Assembly: GCA_963699815.1 (NCBI GenBank) | Contig: CAVOVK010000004.1 | Coordinates: forward strand, 74,478-138,477 | DNA length: 64,000 bases | Source of the DNA: an uncultured Acidimicrobiaceae bacterium | GTDB taxonomy: Bacteria; Actinomycetota; Acidimicrobiia; Acidimicrobiales; Ilumatobacteraceae | Reading direction: 5' to 3' | Part shown: in pieces, positions 24,837-33,876 of the stretch | Numbering within the stretch: position 1 is the stretch's first letter | Layout: each line of letters starts with the position of its first letter | The notes under the pieces: model-generated | The model's database searches: none | What the model was told of the DNA's origin: nothing | Seen by the model: only the letters and a program-made list of their open reading frames with translations | Program-made: the position numbers and the translations under genes

Positions 24837-26116
24837 TTGAGTTCCGAGATTCTCCATGACGAGCACGGTGCACCGATCACCGCGCCCGTGCACGACTGGG
24901 CGACCGACTACGACATCTTCGACCCAGGCTATGTCACGGATCCGTACGGGATCTGGGACGAACTACGCCAGAGCTGCCCGATGGCACACACCGACCGGTG
25001 GGGCGGATCGTGGCTGCCGACGCGTTACGCCGACGTGTACGCGATCGCACACGACATCGAGAAATTCCCGTCCGGCAACGGCATCAGCGTCGTCCCGCTG
25101 GTCGACCCCACGATCGACGACGACTCGGTTCCGGCCAACGCTCCGTCTCCGATCCTGACGTCCGGAGTGCCGCCGATCAGCGCCGACCCACCGCTGCACA
25201 CCTGGACCCGGCGCCTGATCCTGCCCACCATGAGCCCCGCCCGGGTCGCCGAGTACGAGGTGTTCACGCGCGCGAGCTGTGTCGGCGTCTCGTCGATGAC
25301 GTGCTCGAACGAGGCAACGGTGATGCCGCATCCGAATATGCCCAACAGATCCCTGTCCGCGTGATCGGTCACATCCTCGGCGTGCCCGAAGAGATGTCGG
25401 CAACGTTCACCGAGTGGGTGCGCGACGTGCTCGAGTTCGCCCACGATCTGGAGCGCCGACGTGCCGGCATCGGCCACATCATCCACTACTTGCACGAAGC
25501 GATCGAGGCCCGCCGGGCCGAGCCGCAGGACGACTTCATCACCGAGCTGCTCAACAGCGAGCACGACGGCGAGCCGATCGGGATACCGGTCGTGATGGGC
25601 ATGTGCGCCCTACTGCTGATCGCCGGCATCGACACCACGTGGTCCTCGATCGGCTCGACGATGTGGCACCTCGCCACCCATCCCGACGATCGTCGTCGTC
25701 TCGTCACCGAGCCCGACCTGATGCCGACCGCGATCGAGGAGTTCCTGCGGGCGTACGCGCCGGTCACGATGGCGCGTCGGCTGGTCGAGGACAAGGAGTA
25801 CGAAGGCTGCCCGATGAAGGCCGGCGAGCGGATCCTGATGAACTTCCCCGCCGCCAACCGCGACCCCGAGGTGTTCCCCGATGCCGACGAGGTGATTCTC
25901 GACCGCCGCCAGAATCGGCACCTCGCGTTCGGAGCCGGCATCCATCGGTGCGCCGGCTCGAACCTGGCCCGCATGGAGCTTCGCGTCGCCGTCGAGGAGT
26001 GGCTGGCACAGATCCCCGAGTTCGGCCTGATCGACCCCGGACTCGTCACGTGGGCCGGTGGCCAGGTCCGAGGGCCGCGTTCGATCCCGGTGCGGGTGGG
26101 CACATCTGGCTCATAA
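24837..26116 (+). CDS. Cytochrome P450 (frameshift ~25270)
   Basis: DPPLH, AGIDTT, EEFLR (ExxR), AANRDP, HLAFGAGIHRCAG heme motif. TTG start follows AGGAGG. Confidence 0.92.
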
Positions 26117-26144
26117 ATCCTGATACGAGCTGTATCATGATTGC

Positions 26145-26870
26145 ATGCTGTTGGTTGACCTCGTTGCGATCCAGGTCGATGCCCGTACGGGCACGTCCGT
26201 GCTCGTACTTCGCGAGCACGACGCTCCCCACCGAATGCTGCCGATCGTCGTGGGTGGCGATGCCGCCGCATCGATCGCGATCGCTGCCAGTGGCCAGCAC
26301 CCTCCGCGCCCGATGACCCACGATCTCATGGCAACCCTGGTCGAGAGCTTCGAGGGTCATCTCGACGCGGTCGAGGTGACCGACCTCCAAGACGGCGCCT
26401 TCATCGCCAACCTCGCGATCAGCGGACCGATCGGCGACCGCCGTATCGATACGCGCCCGTCCGATGCGATCGCGTTGGCGGTTCGCCTGCACGCGCCGCT
26501 CTACGTCAGCGAGCACGTGCTCGCCGAGGCCGGCGCGCTCCCGGCGGTCGAGACGGACGTCTTGGACGAGGTGGCGATCGATGCCGAGGTCGACCAATTC
26601 CGCAGCTTCCTGGCCGACCTCGACCCGACCGACTTCCTACCGGACACGCCCGATCCCGACCCGACCGACTTCCTGCCGGACGCGCCCGATCCCGACCCGG
26701 CCGACTTCCTGCCCGACGCGCCCGATCCCGACCCGACCGACTTCCTACCGGACACGCCCGATCCCGACCCGACCGACTTCCTGCCCGACGTGCCCGATCC
26801 CGACCCGGACGGACGTCGATCCCGAACGTCACGACCCGGAAGCGACCGACGGTCCCGCGACAGGCTGAGG
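26145..26870 (+). CDS. Bifunctional nuclease (DUF151) family protein with repetitive acidic tail; 3' end uncertain
   Basis: LPIVVG, PRPMTHDL, DTRPSDAIALA, EVDQFRSFLADLDPTDF. Confidence 0.85.
26622..26807 (+). repeat. 36-bp coding tandem repeat x5 (DPTDFLPDTPDP)
   Basis: Read directly; units differ at a few positions. Confidence 0.95.
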
Positions 26871-26902
26871 GCCCGTCGTCCAACCGTCGTACGGCGACGA
26901 CG

Positions 26903-27661
26903 TCACCGACCGGTGAAGTCTGGGAGGCGACGCTCTCCCATCGCACGCGTTCCTTCGGCGAAGTCCTCGGTCGCCTGGAGCCGAGCCTGTTCGGCGGCCT
27001 CGTGCGCCGTCGCCACCGCGACCCGGTCGGCGAGATCCCCCCGCAACGTGGCGCGGATCGAGCGAACGGCGAGCGGGGCCGACCGGGCGATCTCGAGCGC
27101 GAACGTGTGGGCGGCTGCGCCCAGCTCGTCGATCGGCACCAGCCGATCGGCGAGACCCATCGTTCGTGCCTCTTCCCCGTCGACCCGCCGTCCCGTGTAG
27201 AGCAGATCGGCTGCCGCCTGCTCGCCGACCACGCGGGGCAGCGTGACGCTCAGGCCGAAACCCTGGTGAAAGCCGAGCCGAGCGAAGTTGGCGCTGAATC
27301 GAGCCTCGGGTGCAGCGAACCGGAAGTCTGCCGCCAGCGCGAGACCGAGCCCGCCACCGATCGCCGCGCCCTGTACGGCGGCGACGATCGGCTTCGCGCA
27401 ACGGAAGATGCGCACGGCGGTCGCGTACAGGTCTTCGGTGGTGTACGAACGGTCGCCGCCGAAATCGGCGCCGGCACAAAAGTGCTTGCCCCGGGCACGC
27501 AGCACGATCGCCCGGCAGCGGTCGTCGGCGTCGAGACGTTCGAGCGCGTCGGCGATGCCACCGATGATGTCCATCGAGAAGAAGTTGTTCGGCGGACGAC
27601 GCATCTCGACCGTCGCCACATGATCGTCGGCGACGGAACTGTGAACGGCTTCCTCGGACAT
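26903..27661 (-). CDS. Enoyl-CoA hydratase/isomerase
   Basis: FCAGAD, KPIVAAVQGAAIGGG, LAADFR, EDFAEG. Confidence 0.9.
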   Translation of the reverse strand: MSEEAVHSSVADDHVATVEMRRPPNNFFSMDIIGGIADALERLDADDRCRAIVLRARGKHFCAGADFGGDRSYTTEDLYATAVRIFRCAKPIVAAVQGAAIGGGLGLALAADFRFAAPEARFSANFARLGFHQGFGLSVTLPRVVGEQAAADLLYTGRRVDGEEARTMGLADRLVPIDELGAAAHTFALEIARSAPLAVRSIRATLRGDLADRVAVATAHEAAEQARLQATEDFAEGTRAMGERRLPDFTGR

Positions 27662-27748
27662 GTGCCGACGGTACTTTCCGCGCTCCGGTGCGAACGATCG
27701 CAGCCGGCAGGCCATCGACTGCGATCAGCGGATCGGGCGGGTCGACCG

Positions 27749-28603
27749 CTATGGCTCGACGTCGTCGCCGCTGGCGGCGCGGTCGACCGCAGATCGACGG
27801 TGACGCCGTAGTGGTCGGAGGCCAGCACGCCGCCCACCGGTTCGACACCGATCAGGGCGGCTCGTACCGGGTTGCCGAGCGGGCACAGCCTGGGCCAGCC
27901 CACCAGTACGTAGTCGAGCCGTCGCTCCGGCCAGGCCGAGTCGACGACGTACGGGTTCGACGCGGAGTACGTCGCTCCCGGCCCACGCCCCGCCTGCGCC
28001 CAGGCGTCGGTGAACACCAGAGCCGGGAACCGCCGGCTCGGTGAGGCCGGTGAGGCGCCGCACCTCGTCGCTGTCGGGGACGGCATTGAGGTCGCCGAGC
28101 ACGATCGGGGGATACGCGCGATACGGACCATCGCGCTCTTCAGCGACCAGTGCCGCGACCTGGTCGAGCTGGCGGCGGCGTAGACCGCTCTGGTCGAATC
28201 CATGCGACAGGTGGGTGCAGTAGACCCGCAGGACGCCATGCGGTGAGGAGATCGTCGCCCGCAGCACCGTCCGATGCGGCGGCATCGAACCCACGTCGAG
28301 GTATCGCCACACGGTCTCGACGATCGGCCAGCGCGATGCGATCGCATTGGCGATCCCGTGTCGATCATCGTCACCGTCGGGGGCCGTCACCACGGCATAG
28401 CCCAGCTCGTCGCGCAGCGACGCGATCTGGTCGGGCTCGCGGGTGCTCACCTCCTGGAATCCCACGACATCGGCATCGACACCACGCAGGACGTCGAAGA
28501 TCGCCGGCTGCCTCGCCCGCCAATCGCCATTGCGACACCACAGGTTCCAGGTCGCAACTCGCAGCGTGCCCGCCGGTCGGGGCGGGTCCCGGCGAGCGCT
28601 CAT
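27749..28603 (-). CDS. Endonuclease/exonuclease/phosphatase family protein (frameshift ~28020)
   Basis: VATWN, GFQEV, THL, GDLN, RLDYV, SDHY. Confidence 0.85.
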   Translation of the reverse strand: MSARRDPPRPAGTLRVATWNLWCRNGDWRARQPAIFDVLRGVDADVVGFQEVSTREPDQIASLRDELGYAVVTAPDGDDDRHGIANAIASRWPIVETVWRYLDVGSMPPHRTVLRATISSPHGVLRVYCTHLSHGFDQSGLRRRQLDQVAALVAEERDGPYRAYPPIVLGDLNAVPDSDEVRRLTGLTEPAVPGSGVHRRLGAGGAWAGSDVLRVEPVRRRLGLAGATARLRTGGLAQAVPARQPGTSRPDRCRTGGRRAGLRPLRRHRRSAVDRAASGDDVEP

Positions 28604-28826: not shown

Positions 28827-30306
28827 TCAGTAGCTGCCGCGGATCAACTCGACGTCGGCGGTGATCATCGGGACCCGGATGTTCACACCGTGCATCGTCA
28901 GTTCGACGCTGGCACCCTCGATGCCGTGCACGTCCCAGTTCCGGGGCTCTGCGCCGACCAACCGAAAACTCGTGAATCGTCCCGGGTCGTCGCGCAACGG
29001 AGCGAGTCGCAGGTGCAGGTTGCCGTCGATCCATTCGGCGCGGCGGAACGCCATCGTCGGGAAGTCGACGTCGACGAGCTGCGGGCACACCTCGAGCGGA
29101 GCCTCCGACAGCCGTGTCCACAACCCGGGGCCGGCTGCCTCCGCAGCGGCGAGGAAGGCGTTGAACTGACCTCTCGGATACGGCTCGTCGAGGCCCATGC
29201 CCCATGTGAACTCGCCTCGGTCCGAGTCCCAGGTCGGCTCGTAGGACGCCTCGATCGCGTCGGTGGTTCGGTCGTCGAGTTCGTGCATCTCCCACTCACG
29301 GGCCAGGATCAACGCCGAGGCGAAGGCGCGACTGGCCGGGAGCGGAAGCCGGCGTGAGCCGTCGAGTCCGATCGAGACGCACGCCGCCCGGAACAGGCGT
29401 CGGGCGTCGTCGGGCACCTGGGGGGCTGCGTAGAACGACGTGGTCAGCGCCGCCGCCACCGGTAGCCGATGGTGCACGTCGAGCCGTGGGTCGTAGTCGA
29501 AGGTCGTCACCTGGGGTGCCGTCTCGCAGTCCAGGTCGAGGTAATGCTGACGGGCGTAAGCCCACCATGGCTCGAATGCCTGATGGTGGAAATCGGTGCC
29601 GTGGCGGTTGTCGTGGAGCCTCAGACCGAGGCCGGCTCCGGCCAGTCAAAACGGCCAGACCTTGGTGTTTTCTCAATGGCAACCGATGGGCGCTGCCAAC
29701 CACTGGCGGCACAGGTGTTCGGCGATCTGGGAGTGGGTCCAGGTGAACGTGTTGTCGCCGTCGCGGATCAGCTCGAACGGCCGGTTCCACGTGTCATCGG
29801 CGTTCTGGGCGTTGTCGATCATCGATCGGATGCCGAGCAGCACCAGGAAGAACCCCTTGTAGAACAGCATCCCATCGGCGGCGACAGGATCCATCTGCAG
29901 ACCCCACGGTTCCGTGCCGTTGGCGGTCCAACCCGGCACGTCGTAGTCGCCCCACAGTCGAGGTGGAATGAACGGCCGATAGATGTCGGGGTAGTCGGAC
30001 CGGTCCGGGTCGTGGCCGAACTGGGTCAACCAGTCGGCAGCCGACCACCAGCCGGTGTGGCGCTCGATCAGCTGGTCGAGGATCGCGACGTACGGTTCGG
30101 TCCACGCCGGTGTTCGGTGCGCCATCGAGTCCCATCGCATACGACGAGTCCACCAGGTCGAAACGATGCCAACTCGCCATCGGCGGATCCGACCGATCGT
30201 CCCAGTGCGGGTGTGGTCGCCCGGCTCGGCTCCAGTCGTCGGGCGTATTCGCTTTGCGGTGTAGGTACCGCAGCCATCCCAGCGACCGTTCCGACAGCGC
30301 CTTCAT
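28827..30306 (-). CDS. Linalool dehydratase/isomerase (LinD)-family protein, putative selenoprotein with two Sec codons (~490 aa; one probable 1-nt insertion ~30127)
   Basis: Three ORF-track pieces join into one gene. DPVAADGMLFYKGFF resembles LinD DPIEKENIMYKGHL (recalled). In-frame TGA at 29673-29675 and 29646-29648 gives U-x8-U, and the frame then stays open to 28827. Confidence 0.78.
29615..29639 (-). promoter_or_regulatory. Putative bacterial SECIS hairpin for the second UGA
   Basis: GGA-(GCCG bulge)-GCCUC-GGUCU-GAGGC-UCC. GGU CUG are codons +7/+8 after the UGA, as in E. coli fdhF. Confidence 0.7.
29648..29671 (-). promoter_or_regulatory. SECIS-like hairpin between the two UGA codons
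   Basis: AAAAC-A-CCA-AGGUC-UGG-CC-GUUUU; contains AGGUCUG. Confidence 0.45.
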
Positions 30307-30526
30307 ACTCGACGTCGGCACTCGAATCCGCCGCTGCCCACCCCGGCCGAGAAGATCCCGATTCCCATCGAACCAACCTAAACCACCACGTTCGGTTGCG
30401 GCCGGTTCGGGCCCCGACGGTCGAGCGATCGGTGCTCGAGGTCGGTACGTCGCGCCCGCTCAGCCCACCGACACCATCCACACCCAAACCAGCCACACCG
30501 GTACCAGCCACACCGGTACCATCCAC

Positions 30527-31402
30527 GTGGTGGGTACGGACAGGATCGCCATCGAGCCGCTGGACGCCATGTTCGGCGCTGTCGTGCGGGGGATCACCGT
30601 GAGCGAACTCGACCCGTCCGGGATCGAGCGAGATACACGAGGCGTGGGTCGAGTTCGGTCTGCTCGTGTTTCCCGAGCAGCATCTCACCCTGGCCGAGCA
30701 GGACGACTTCGCGCGCGCGCTTCGGCGAGCTCGAGTACGACGCGACCGCGCTCACCGACCTCCGGCGCGATGGAACGGTTCGCGACCCGTCGCGAAGCGT
30801 TGGTCAGGTCGTTACGCGGCAACGAGGGCTGGCATCACGACAGCACCTACCTGCCGGTGCAGGCCAAAGGGGCGGTGTTCAGCGCCGAGATCATCCCGAC
30901 CGAGGGCGGTGCCACGGGGTTCGCCGACATGAGGGCGGCGTACGACGCGCTCGATCGGGCCACCCGTTCGTCGATCGCCCAGCTGAGCGCTCACCACTCC
31001 CGGCGCTACAGCATGGAACGGTCGGGGAATCAGGTGTCCGAAGGGGAGGCCGGTACCTATCAGCTCTACGGCTACCACGACGATGAACCGCCGCTACGAC
31101 CACTCGTGAAGGTGCATCCCGACACCGGGCGTCCGAACCTGCTGATCGGTCAGCACGCATTCGGGGTCCTCGGCTTGAGTGACGACGAGTCGGTCGCCGT
31201 GCTCGATCGTCTCAACGACGAGGCATGCCGGGCGTCGCTCACCTACCACCACGAGTGGAGCGTCGGTGACGCCGTGCTGTGGGACAACCGGCGCCTCATG
31301 CATCGCGCAACGCCCCACGACCCGACCCAACCACGCCGCATGTGGCACACCCGCATCGCCGGCGACCCTGCGACCGAAACCGCCACCAACTACCGACGGT
31401 GA
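30527..31402 (+). CDS. TauD/TfdA family Fe(II)/2-oxoglutarate dioxygenase (frameshifts ~30630-30790; start uncertain)
   Basis: WHHDSTY (HxD), GGATGFADM, PLVKVHPDTGR, WDNRRLMHRA. Confidence 0.88.
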   Translation: MVGTDRIAIEPLDAMFGAVVRGITVSELDPSGIERDTRGVGRVRSARVSRAASHPGRAGRLRARASASSSTTRPRSPTSGAMERFATRREALVRSLRGNEGWHHDSTYLPVQAKGAVFSAEIIPTEGGATGFADMRAAYDALDRATRSSIAQLSAHHSRRYSMERSGNQVSEGEAGTYQLYGYHDDEPPLRPLVKVHPDTGRPNLLIGQHAFGVLGLSDDESVAVLDRLNDEACRASLTYHHEWSVGDAVLWDNRRLMHRATPHDPTQPRRMWHTRIAGDPATETATNYRR

Positions 31403-31403
31403 T

Positions 31404-31470
31404 CGACCACGGACGATCACCGACCATCGGACGATCACCAACCACGGAGTCACCGACCACGGACGATCAC
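31404..31470. repeat. ~17-bp imperfect tandem repeat x4 (CGACCACGGACGATCAC)
   Basis: Read directly, immediately after the TauD stop. Confidence 0.85.
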
Positions 31471-31629
31471 CAGTGATCGGCGTCGCGGATGGTCGGAGCG
31501 AGCAACGGCTCGCCATCGAGATCGTCCATCCGGTGTTCCCACACCTCGTCGCACTCGCGCCTCCCTCGCCATCGTCGCTGCAAGCGGTGACGGCCAACCC
31601 GGCCCGTGCCCAGGTGTCATCATGAGGGG

Positions 31630-32663
31630 ATGCCGATCGACTCTCCATCGACTCCCAGCGCGGCAGGCTTCGCGATGCCGGCCGAATGGGAGCCGCACGC
31701 GGGCTGTCTGATGGCGTGGCCGTCACGGGCCGAGCTGTGGGGTGACCACCTCACGGCTGCCAAGCACGACTACGCCGCGGTGGCGACCGCGATCGCCGAG
31801 TTCGAACCGGTGGTGATGGTGTGCAATCCGGGACACGGCGCCGAGGTACGAGCGTTGTGCGGTTCGGTCGTGTCACCGATCGAGATCCCGATCAACGATT
31901 CGTGGGCCCGCGACAGTGGGCCGGCATTCGCGCGGCGACGTCGACGGCGACGTGGCGGTGGTCGGGTTCGGATTCAACGCCTGGGGCAATCGGTGGCATC
32001 CCCACGACGACGATGCCCGATTGTCGCTGCGGCTGGCCGAATGGCTCGGGCTGCCCTACTTCGAGGCGCCGTTCGTGCTGGAAGGTGGATCGTTCTTCGT
32101 CGACGGCGAGGGAACCCTGATCACCACCGAGGAGTGCCTGCTCAACCCAACCGCAATCCTGAACTGTCGCGCGCTCAGATCGAGCAGGGCCTGAAGGACT
32201 ACCTGGGAGCGAGCACGGTGATCTGGTTGCCGTACGGACACAGTCTCGACACCGGCCCGGCCGGAACCGACGGGCATGTCGACGGTGTGCTGCAGTACGT
32301 GGCACCGGGCCACGTGATGTTGGAAGTGGTCTCCGACCCATCGTCACCGGAGTACCCGCCGGCCACGCGAACCTCGAGATCCTGACTGGATCCCTCGATG
32401 CCGCAGGCCGCCGCTTCGACATCACGATCCTCGACCCCGGCACGACGACCGAGGTGTCATATGCCAATCATTACCTCGCCAACGGCGGTGTGATCGTGCC
32501 CGTCGGCGGCGACGCCGCCGACGGACCGGCGCTCGAGACCTTGCGAGCTCTGTACCCGGATCGCGAGGTCGTCGCGGTGCCCGGGGCAACGATCGCGTTC
32601 GGTGGTGGAGGGCCGCACTGCATCACGCAGCAGATCCCACTCGGAGTCGATCTCCCCGGCTGA
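31630..32663 (+). CDS. aguA: Agmatine deiminase family protein (several frameshifts)
   Basis: MPAEWEPH, DSWARDSGP, LEGG, TDGHVDG, SYAN, GGGGPHCITQQ. Confidence 0.85.
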
Positions 32664-32698
32664 GACCGACCCCGATCAGCCACCGGATTCGTTCGAGA

Positions 32699-33658
32699 TC
32701 ACGCGTCGGCGGACGGTCGGCCGAGATCCGTCGACGTCATCAGGCGCCGATACCGATCGGGTCGGCGGGTGTACATCAGACCGAACGACAGGGCGTCGTC
32801 GCGCTGGGTGAGATCGAGATCGGCGATCAACACCGCCGGACGGTCACGTGGCGCCTCGACGAGGATCCGCCCGTAGGGATCGGAGACGAACGACGATCCG
32901 TAGAACGTCAATGGGCCCTCGGTTCCGATGCGGTTGATCGCGATCATGAACGTCGAGTTCGCCAACCCGTTGGCGGCGATCATCTGGCGCCACATCGGTT
33001 GGGTGTCGGCGTCGGGCATGTGCGGCTCGTTGCCGATCGCGGTCGGGTAGACGATGATCTGAGCACCTTGCATCGACAACGAGCGGGCCAGCTCGGGAAA
33101 CCATTGATCCCAACACGTCGGGAAGGCGAACATCGCGCCGGCCGCCTCGACCACCGGGCAGTCCTGATCGGCCGGCTCGAAGTACTGGTTCTCGTGGTAG
33201 TAGGGGAACTCGGGAATGTGGGTCTTGCGGGTTCGTGTCACGAGTCGCCCCGACGCGTCGACACAGATCGCCGTGTTGAAACCACGACCGTCGGTGGTGC
33301 GCTCGTACAGCGAGGCGTGCACCCAGACGTCGAACTCGGCTGCGAGCTGACGTGCCATCGCGAGCGTCGGACCGGTCTCGATGTCCTCGCCGTACGTGAC
33401 CAAGGCACGGGGTACGTCGGGCGCGACGCAGAAGTACGGCGACAGGGTCAGCTCCTGCAACACCACGATGCGTGCACCCCGCTCGGCAGCGAGCTGCACG
33501 CCGCTGCGCACGGTGGCCCGATGCTCGACCGGGTCGGGATTCCACGCACATTGCACAGCGCCCACCCGGAGCATCTCACCGTCCGGCTGGCCGGCGATCC
33601 GGTACGGCGACGGCAACACCGCACCCGGCCCGATCACCTGGAACTCGTTGACGAACAT
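32699..33658 (-). CDS. Carbon-nitrogen hydrolase (N-carbamoylputrescine amidase-like)
   Basis: E-K-C triad in LQEL, RKTHIP, TCWDQWFPE; PTAIG, FYGSSF. Confidence 0.85.
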   Translation of the reverse strand: MFVNEFQVIGPGAVLPSPYRIAGQPDGEMLRVGAVQCAWNPDPVEHRATVRSGVQLAAERGARIVVLQELTLSPYFCVAPDVPRALVTYGEDIETGPTLAMARQLAAEFDVWVHASLYERTTDGRGFNTAICVDASGRLVTRTRKTHIPEFPYYHENQYFEPADQDCPVVEAAGAMFAFPTCWDQWFPELARSLSMQGAQIIVYPTAIGNEPHMPDADTQPMWRQMIAANGLANSTFMIAINRIGTEGPLTFYGSSFVSDPYGRILVEAPRDRPAVLIADLDLTQRDDALSFGLMYTRRPDRYRRLMTSTDLGRPSADA

Positions 33659-33876
33659 CGGCCACACCCCTTCACGTTGCGGAGAGACAGCCGCCATCAT
33701 CGCATCGTTCGGACCGCGAGAGCGCCGCTCGGTCGACTCAGGCGAGACAGAACGGGCACCCGCCGCCCGCGCGATCGCCTCGACGAACGGCCGGCCGCTG
33801 TGCGAACCCCGGATACACCAACGTTGCCGAGCCCGGCTGGACGCGCCGGCGCTCGCGCGATCATGATGGGCCCCTC

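Follow-up and report, generated by a model that had tools for sequence, protein, structure and literature searches.

Two in-frame UGA codons at the catalytic cysteine columns of an acidimicrobial linalool dehydratase-family gene are very likely read as selenocysteine

What is a gene doing with two stop codons in the middle of its active site? The question is raised by a stretch of DNA of 64,000 nucleotides (the window, by which we mean the whole stretch analyzed) from an uncultured Acidimicrobiaceae bacterium of the Ilumatobacteraceae, GenBank assembly GCA_963699815.1, contig CAVOVK010000004.1, positions 74,478 to 138,477. On its minus strand lies a gene of the Ldi family (PF18566), the family of the linalool dehydratase LinD, which at the site in question reads GGT TGC CAT TGA GAA AAC ACC AAG GTC TGG CCG TTT TGA CTG GCC GGA. 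The initial annotation of this DNA proposed that both TGAs specify selenocysteine (Sec) in place of the two catalytic cysteines. That proposal has fared well: the two columns align to LinD C171 and C180, the TGAs are conserved, selA, selB and selD are in the genome and hairpins follow the codons, so that both UGAs very likely encode selenocysteine. With less assurance, we think it probable that this is one gene for a LinD-barrel protein of 492 residues, its UGAs read as Sec at the catalytic cysteines, and likely a cofactor-free allylic enzyme with a terpene-like substrate. The features we shall need are these.

28827..30306, minus strand: Ldi-family (PF18566) gene for a 492-residue protein with two in-frame UGAs; orthologue in the congener G018
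30306-04, minus strand: start codon, ATG
30126..30127, minus strand: one surplus base, which puts the first ~60 codons out of frame and is most likely an error of assembly
29853..29867, minus strand: LFYKG motif, aligned by profile to IMYKG of LinD (M125 is Phe here and, next, H129 is Phe)
29673..29675, minus strand: UGA 1, predicted Sec211, in the column of LinD C171 and followed by an invariant Glu (LinD E172)
29646..29648, minus strand: UGA 2, predicted Sec220, in the column of LinD C180
29637..29659, minus strand: hairpin 1, beginning 13 nt past UGA 1, with UGA 2 in its loop
29617..29633, minus strand: hairpin 2, of the bacterial SECIS (selenocysteine insertion sequence) type, with a 6-bp stem and the loop GGUCU from 18 nt past UGA 2
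28830..29096, minus strand: C-terminal all-beta domain of ~89 residues in the predicted model, absent from LinD
28829-27, minus strand: stop codon, TGA

Two TGAs nine codons apart in one frame, with a long open frame beyond the second, were what had caught the eye in the first place. Both are where they were said to be (29673-75 and 29646-48), and the frame stays open for 272 codons past the second, up to the TGA at 28827-29. Both TGAs of the source genome, G000 in our numbering, were checked through the sequences of relatives (Ilumatobacteraceae and other Acidimicrobiia). What do those relatives carry at the two columns? Among the best 120 database homologues, with the query excluded, the motif is visible in 106, of which 102 have cysteine at both columns (14 lack the motif), and both cysteines are still kept in homologues at 25-31% identity. 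Closer to home the picture changes. Searches with this protein, which sample its own clade, gave 70 loci (15 from genome searches and 55 others); less 5 without the site and 8 duplicates, these come to 57 distinct acidimicrobial loci, 51 with TGA/TGA, six with Cys/TGA and none with TGA/Cys. Within the genus, matches came from 16 of 40 genomes, and the site is covered in 14 (12 TGA/TGA and two TGC/TGA). When 400 genomes were drawn evenly from the order, 23 matched: nine TGA/TGA, six Cys/TGA, two Cys/Cys, two Ser/His and four partial.

The TGAs are not scattered. In 56 aligned genes an in-frame TGA occurs at these two columns and nowhere else, at the second in 56 of 56 and at the first in 48 of 56, which argues against chance. 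All 1057 tryptophan codons in the same genes are TGG, and tryptophan, which had been named as a residue that would sink the proposal, was never seen at either column. On trees built without the recoded columns, the earliest branches are Cys/Sec forms, and nested within the Sec/Sec genes lie several further Cys/Sec genes along with Ser/His and Cys/Gln forms. As read from these trees, the second position is a stable Sec, while the first changes five or six times in a direction that depends on the root. Members whose catalytic columns have degenerated to Ser/His, Cys/Gln or eroded residues (L117 and L118 in G091 and G286; P0072, P0116, P0002, P0129, P0133 and P0146), nest inside the Sec clade where they were placed on the tree. 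It is possible that they are pseudo-enzymes or have changed function.

Might the TGAs simply be stops, of a pseudogene or a split gene, or else Trp or Cys under a variant code? The databases, at first sight, say so: their gene calls split the family, and 10 proteins at 69-81% identity consist of the C-terminal half only, starting after the second TGA. Stops shared by many genera at two exact columns, between frames that are open and conserved on both sides, make poor debris all the same. The gene's own terminator is TGA, the genome has tRNA-Trp(CCA) and tRNA-Cys(GCA), no Trp column carries TGA, and a covarying hairpin (see below) is found only where a UGA is present. The substitution rates agree. 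The ratio of nonsynonymous to synonymous change (dN/dS) in eight pairs is 0.07-0.20 upstream of the TGAs and 0.19-0.38 downstream (0.14 and 0.19 against G018), so purifying selection acts on the downstream part as well; the relaxed selection that would have spoken for a dead 3' half was not found. Against the recoded gene it must be said that dN/dS roughly doubles from the upstream to the downstream part, although the gradient is shared by the Cys/Cys family, with identity 0.77 upstream and 0.54 downstream. On the two exact columns, the uniform TGG and the constraint on both sides we rejected TGA=Trp, TGA=Cys and the pseudogene, and give true stops or a variant code next to no chance.

Recoding needs machinery. 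In G000, selA lies at 36906-37958 of contig C17 with selB adjacent (from C17:38043 onwards), and selD lies at C1:32718-33626, all above profile cut-offs; SelD is the Cys form. The missing piece is tRNA-Sec. Neither ARAGORN, nor RF01852, nor an Rfam search near selB, nor blastn with the genes of five relatives found it in G000, a point that tells against Sec and can be claimed by anyone who reads the TGAs as stops. The assembly is 62% complete with 27 tRNAs, and the DNA that flanks selC in relatives is missing from it as well. Of the Sec genes that were to be looked for in the genome, selA, selB and selD are present. Relatives fill in the picture. Of the 29 UGA carriers tested, none lacks both selB and selA (selB at E<=1e-65 in 25, selA in the other four), and tRNA-Sec turned up in nine of ten carriers tested, with anticodon UCA in the five shown. 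Selenocysteine use is common in the order, where selB was found in 259 of 401 genomes (a count that includes six unpublished genomes, G081, G104, G176, G285, G360 and G398, on which no other result depends). The presence of selB in 14 of 15 carriers (Fisher p 0.024, kin not being independent) is consistent but weak. No molybdopterin oxidoreductase was found in G000, so there is no formate dehydrogenase SECIS with which to compare.

A different worry is that the family is real and this copy dead, through the frameshift at 30127 that the extra base puts into the assembled sequence. The closest congener, G018, has an orthologue of 492 residues at 89% identity, and the base at 30126/30127 is the sole indel in the gene between the two. 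It is absent from contigs in four of four independent public runs, including one 480-base contig of a near-identical strain that spans 30041-30446 with eight differences and one gap. There are more single-base indels against G018 at 28021, 30528, 30625, 30717 and 30793, in the neighboring exonuclease/phosphatase-family and TauD-family genes, which point to an error-prone assembly. Because the base is missing from public contigs and such indels recur next door, the frameshift is most likely an assembly error private to this sequence. Together with the low dN/dS against G018 on either side of the TGAs, this makes a dead copy most improbable.

How would a bacterium decode two UGAs this close together? 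The published model of a bacterial SECIS (PMC13188914) has its loop 16-37 nt downstream of the UGA, a loop of 3-9 nt led by G, a stem of at least 4 pairs and a minimum free energy of at most -7.5. Hairpin 2 agrees with the model for UGA 2, with its loop GGUCU at 18 nt, 6 pairs and -9.2 kcal/mol (PMC13188914). Across the alignment 312 of 312 cells are paired, with seven C-G to U-A double changes, a score that none of 500 shuffles reached; the number of pairs with a double change, one, is not above shuffles. The codons CTC-GGT-CTG at hairpin 2 are invariant in 56 of 56 genes; of 102 conserved degenerate columns, theirs are among the four that vary least. Judged by this alignment, hairpin 2 freezes three synonymous codons. 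Its core is present in 58 of 58 genes that bear a UGA and in none of four that do not.

Hairpin 1 is the more difficult of the two. It has an energy of -13.8 and a spacing within the SECIS model, and it is stabilized relative to synonymous recoding where UGA 1 is present: the median P is 0.03 in double-UGA genes (n=47), 0.35 in Cys/UGA genes (n=11) and 0.49 in Cys/Cys genes (n=2). A rare glycine codon, GGA or GGG, closes it in 42 of 47 double-UGA genes and in one of 11 Cys/UGA genes. We picture the decoding as follows. SelB would bind hairpin 2 through the loop GGUCU and so decode UGA 2. For UGA 1, hairpin 1, with UGA 2 lying in its loop, would fold the intervening 23 nt out of the way and so set the same SelB site just past the ribosome. 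One SelB site would serve both codons, hairpin 1 being a fold-back spacer, and this is the arrangement we tentatively favor over two sites or no role for hairpin 1.

We favor it because the base that starts the loop of hairpin 1 varies. Quite possible too is that hairpin 1 is itself a SECIS bound by SelB, with an unusual loop, so that each UGA has its own element. Hairpin 1 starts 11-13 nt past UGA 1, comparable to hairpin 2 after UGA 2, its stability tracks the presence of UGA 1 and, if the top G-U pair is opened, its loop in this genome begins with G at 20 nt past UGA 1. Yet among 47 double-UGA genes 14 have another base in place of the leading G (A in 12 and C in two, as against G in the remaining 33), whereas the loop of hairpin 2 is invariant in 58 of 58. 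The fold-back spacer has its own difficulties. Covariation in hairpin 1 is not above shuffles, its tie to UGA 1 amounts to four independent pairs on the tree (sign test p 0.125), and the loop of hairpin 2 is 45 nt from UGA 1, beyond the 16-37 nt of the model (PMC13188914). That hairpin 1 has no role in decoding we consider improbable. A genome-wide scan for UGA with similar hairpins gave 83 matches, mostly chance. In double-UGA genes the codon before each UGA (29676-29678 and 29649-29651) tends to end in U: UGA 1 follows CAT in 42 of 50 such genes and UGA 2 follows TTT in 40 of 50, where CAT makes up 181 of 757 of their other His codons and TTT 115 of 948 of their other Phe codons. This is possibly a context that weakens termination.

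What kind of protein is it? The score against Pfam PF18566 is 35.5 bits, the curated cut-off being 26.1. The predicted structure of the G018 orthologue (mean confidence, as pLDDT, 92.6) retrieves LinD chains as its top Foldseek matches (E 1.5e-9) and superposes on LinD with Z 33.3 and a root-mean-square deviation of 2.6 over 324 residues; the next family reaches Z 19. The predicted fold is that of the LinD (alpha/alpha)6 barrel, as the proposed structural comparison was expected to show. A single-sequence search of the PDB gave no LinD match; profiles were needed, and it is the profile alignments that set UGA 1 on C171, the Glu on E172 and UGA 2 on C180 (LinD numbers were counted from the printed chain and agree with the PDB mutant titles).

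The structural counterpart is LinD, or Ldi, of Castellaniella defragrans (PDB 5G1U, 5HLR, 5I3T and 7AD2; mutants 6TFT, C171A, and 6TFR, C180A). The two share DPI..N/M..YKG, G..CE and the second Cys nine residues on, all aligned; LFYKG at 29853-67, spotted early as the counterpart of the LinD MYKG motif, does align to it, with Phe in the M125 column. LinD proper is periplasmic, has a signal peptide and forms a homopentamer with the active site at the subunit interface. No signal peptide is apparent by eye in our protein, whose conserved core begins at residue 4 and aligns from about residue 17-21 of the mature LinD chain. Besides the predicted Sec pair, it differs from LinD in the extra C-terminal beta domain, which has no Foldseek match at E<=0.001. 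Three differences tell against a LinD-like function. Identity is just 15-18%; M125 and H129, which we take to be pocket residues of LinD (a PDB entry title names the mutant M125A), are not kept; and there is no Cys before residue 199, so the disulfide that caps the substrate channel in LinD (Cys48-Cys101; PMC6600392) is absent. The idea of a LinD-type enzyme thus holds for the fold and the catalytic columns. The reaction is partly supported, given the two Phe, the missing N-terminal disulfide pair, the additional domain and surroundings without a terpene neighborhood. On the model, the protein is a PF18566 member, LinD-like in fold and, provided that both UGAs are Sec, in catalytic pair, and not LinD proper (EC 4.2.1.127).

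The other characterized family member is Lis, the linalool isomerase of Thauera linaloolentis (PMC4791888). It too depends on reductant, is encoded by a stand-alone gene and has a catalytic domain that faces the cytoplasm; it differs in its 644 residues, its four N-terminal membrane helices and in having no selenocysteine reported (PMC4791888).

Which reaction, then, would two selenols serve? Our leaning, by analogy with LinD, is toward allylic dehydration, hydration or isomerization by a hydro-lyase/isomerase; linalool itself is very unlikely to be the substrate. Whether LinD works by acid/base or by covalent catalysis is stated as open in a paper that also describes it as oxygen-sensitive, in need of a reductant and used for diene production (PMC6013536). 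In our protein the second position, always Sec, would attack the allylic carbon and give a transient selenoether, with the first position, which may be Cys, assisting together with the invariant Glu. A later paper reportedly argued for a non-covalent mechanism in LinD. The selenoether is probably the route by which such chemistry would run here, since a selenol (pKa 5.2, against 8.3 for a thiol; PMC13188914) is fitted to attack as a nucleophile, not to give the proton that an acid/base scheme requires.

Two points weigh against this chemistry. Nearly all cataloged selenoproteins are redox proteins (PMC13188914), and no conserved neighbors were found around the Sec genes in 28 loci with 96 neighbors, where the sole family common to neighborhoods is that of the luciferase-like monooxygenases, in four of 28. 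Rather unlikely, in our view, is that both sites are Sec and serve redox or carbon-sulfur chemistry, for instance the release of glutathione or some other thiol from a conjugate through a diselenide/selenosulfide cycle. Apart from the redox habit of known selenoproteins and the loss of H129, the case for it comes from a marine Cys/Cys sister group (loci L135-L207, sister of the eukaryote-like branch described below). There 54 of 61 complete genes end in a CxCC-type tail that resembles a redox shuttle, and the neighbors include glutathione transferase in 31 of 69 loci, acyl-CoA ligase in 25, SDR in 24 and a VOC protein in 20. Those loci are mostly close kin, however, so the neighbors represent few independent events, and neither the 93 nearest Cys/Cys homologues nor the Sec forms seen carry the Cys-Cys tail. 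In its Glu and its U-E-x7-U spacing the site fits LinD rather than a CxxC motif, and the oxygen sensitivity of LinD and its need for reductant (PMC6013536) could account for tail and Sec alike with no redox turnover involved.

Is the Sec pair confined to actinobacteria? A profile search of all cluster representatives brought up distant proteins that end just before the first catalytic column. Of 29 top proteins of this branch, 28 end in G/A-L/M/I/V-H/N before that column and the 29th in GVP; the sources include EukProt (one is labeled Choanoflagellata sp. UC4) and MMETSP. Metagenomes gave 443 loci, and the best 80 of these comprise 11 with TGA/TGA, among them two near-copy pairs, and 69 with Cys/Cys. 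The loci and proteins concerned are as follows.

L128-L134, L143, L146, L151 and L182: eukaryote-like loci with TGA at both columns
P0185, P0311 and P0317: database proteins of this branch, which stop short at the first TGA

EukProt and MMETSP proteins are the nearest to these loci. The in-frame hairpin core of the bacterial genes is absent from all 11. A strict scan for AUGA..AA..GA, the eukaryote-type element, gives matches in six of ten loci with a 3' tail, in none of 60 Cys/Cys tails and in 0-9 of 300 shuffles per tail. Rfam SECIS_1 scores below its gathering threshold of 35 bits in L151 (28.8), L134 (25.6) and L143 (20.5), two of the three beyond the strict-scan matches. L133 has two 3' SECIS elements, at 1813 and 1946, and L151 terminates in an A run; no SECIS element was found in L182. 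A eukaryotic origin of the branch contigs is likely, as inferred from their sequences. We considered a ciliate-type code with TGA=Cys and disfavored it: the TGAs stand at two columns, with frames of hundreds of codons on either side and SECIS elements following.

On the tree the eukaryote-like branch is one clade (100/100), with Cys/Cys groups between it and the actinobacterial Sec clade. A joint Sec clade is rejected with p-AU 4e-81 (under LG+G4 without mixture, the group having been named after the tree was seen). The simplest reading of this tree would be that actinobacteria and the eukaryote-like branch gained their two Sec independently. An ancient Sec pair followed by many losses is a possible, less simple alternative.

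Has the family been seen before? It is absent from the table of 119 prokaryotic selenoprotein families in PMC13188914 (2026), whose text contains neither linalool nor dehydratase. None of those families has the LinD fold or a U-x8-U motif, and nearly all are redox or metal-handling (PMC13188914). We found no literature that links linalool dehydratase or PF18566 with selenocysteine or selenoproteins, in a search that left most subscription journals outside. Among the matches listed for selenoprotein and linalool, nothing was related by title and abstract, and none of the linalool dehydratase papers listed was on selenium. No NCBIfam model (June 2026) matches any of three family proteins. The family is apparently uncataloged, though 'Hypo' in PMC7539508 or unnamed deep-Sep predictions could include it.

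Comparisons can be made all the same. Bacterial selenoproteins with two Sec (UxxU Prx-like, TsoB with UxxxxU, and MbdU; PMC13188914) likewise have UGA at a Cys column, a G-led hairpin 16-37 nt on and selA/selB/selD; here, by contrast, the first UGA is 45 nt from the canonical loop. SaoL, a MerB-like organometallic lyase (NF040728), is likewise a Sec version of a Cys-dependent lyase whose database entries are truncated at the UGA. It differs in fold, in its one Sec in a CU motif and in a conserved nine-gene neighborhood, of which there is none around our family.

What the gene adds is a widespread selenoprotein family, cut up by gene callers, in a fold without a redox cofactor. Its natural Cys/Cys, Cys/Sec and Sec/Sec versions make the question of acid/base or covalent catalysis in LinD directly testable, since selenols are strong as nucleophiles and poor as acids. 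The Sec forms may also be more robust, LinD being the oxygen-sensitive enzyme used for dienes (PMC6013536). That two different SECIS systems should have come to the same double recoding would be a rare convergence, and the two-hairpin layout offers a test of how bacteria decode two close UGAs. Taken all together, a class of cofactor-free, non-redox selenoenzymes that act on allylic C-O bonds through a covalent selenoether, their Sec pair gained independently in actinobacteria and marine protists, with one SECIS serving two UGAs at a distance of 27 nt, the first of them through a fold-back hairpin, remains a doubtful proposition.

A few minor observations complete the account. No promoter-like site was found at the gene, and RNA runs contained 5-8% of its sequence words, which we did not count as evidence of expression. 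Its neighbors, in 24998-27715 and 30110-33700, include a cytochrome P450, an enoyl-CoA hydratase, a TauD dioxygenase, an agmatine-deiminase-like protein and a carbon-nitrogen hydrolase; an enoyl-CoA hydratase is close to the family gene in five loci only. On the plus strand, at 26145-27200, lies a gene with a bifunctional-nuclease domain (PF02577) that carries, near 26620-26800, about five tandem units resembling DPTDFLPD(T/A)PDP.
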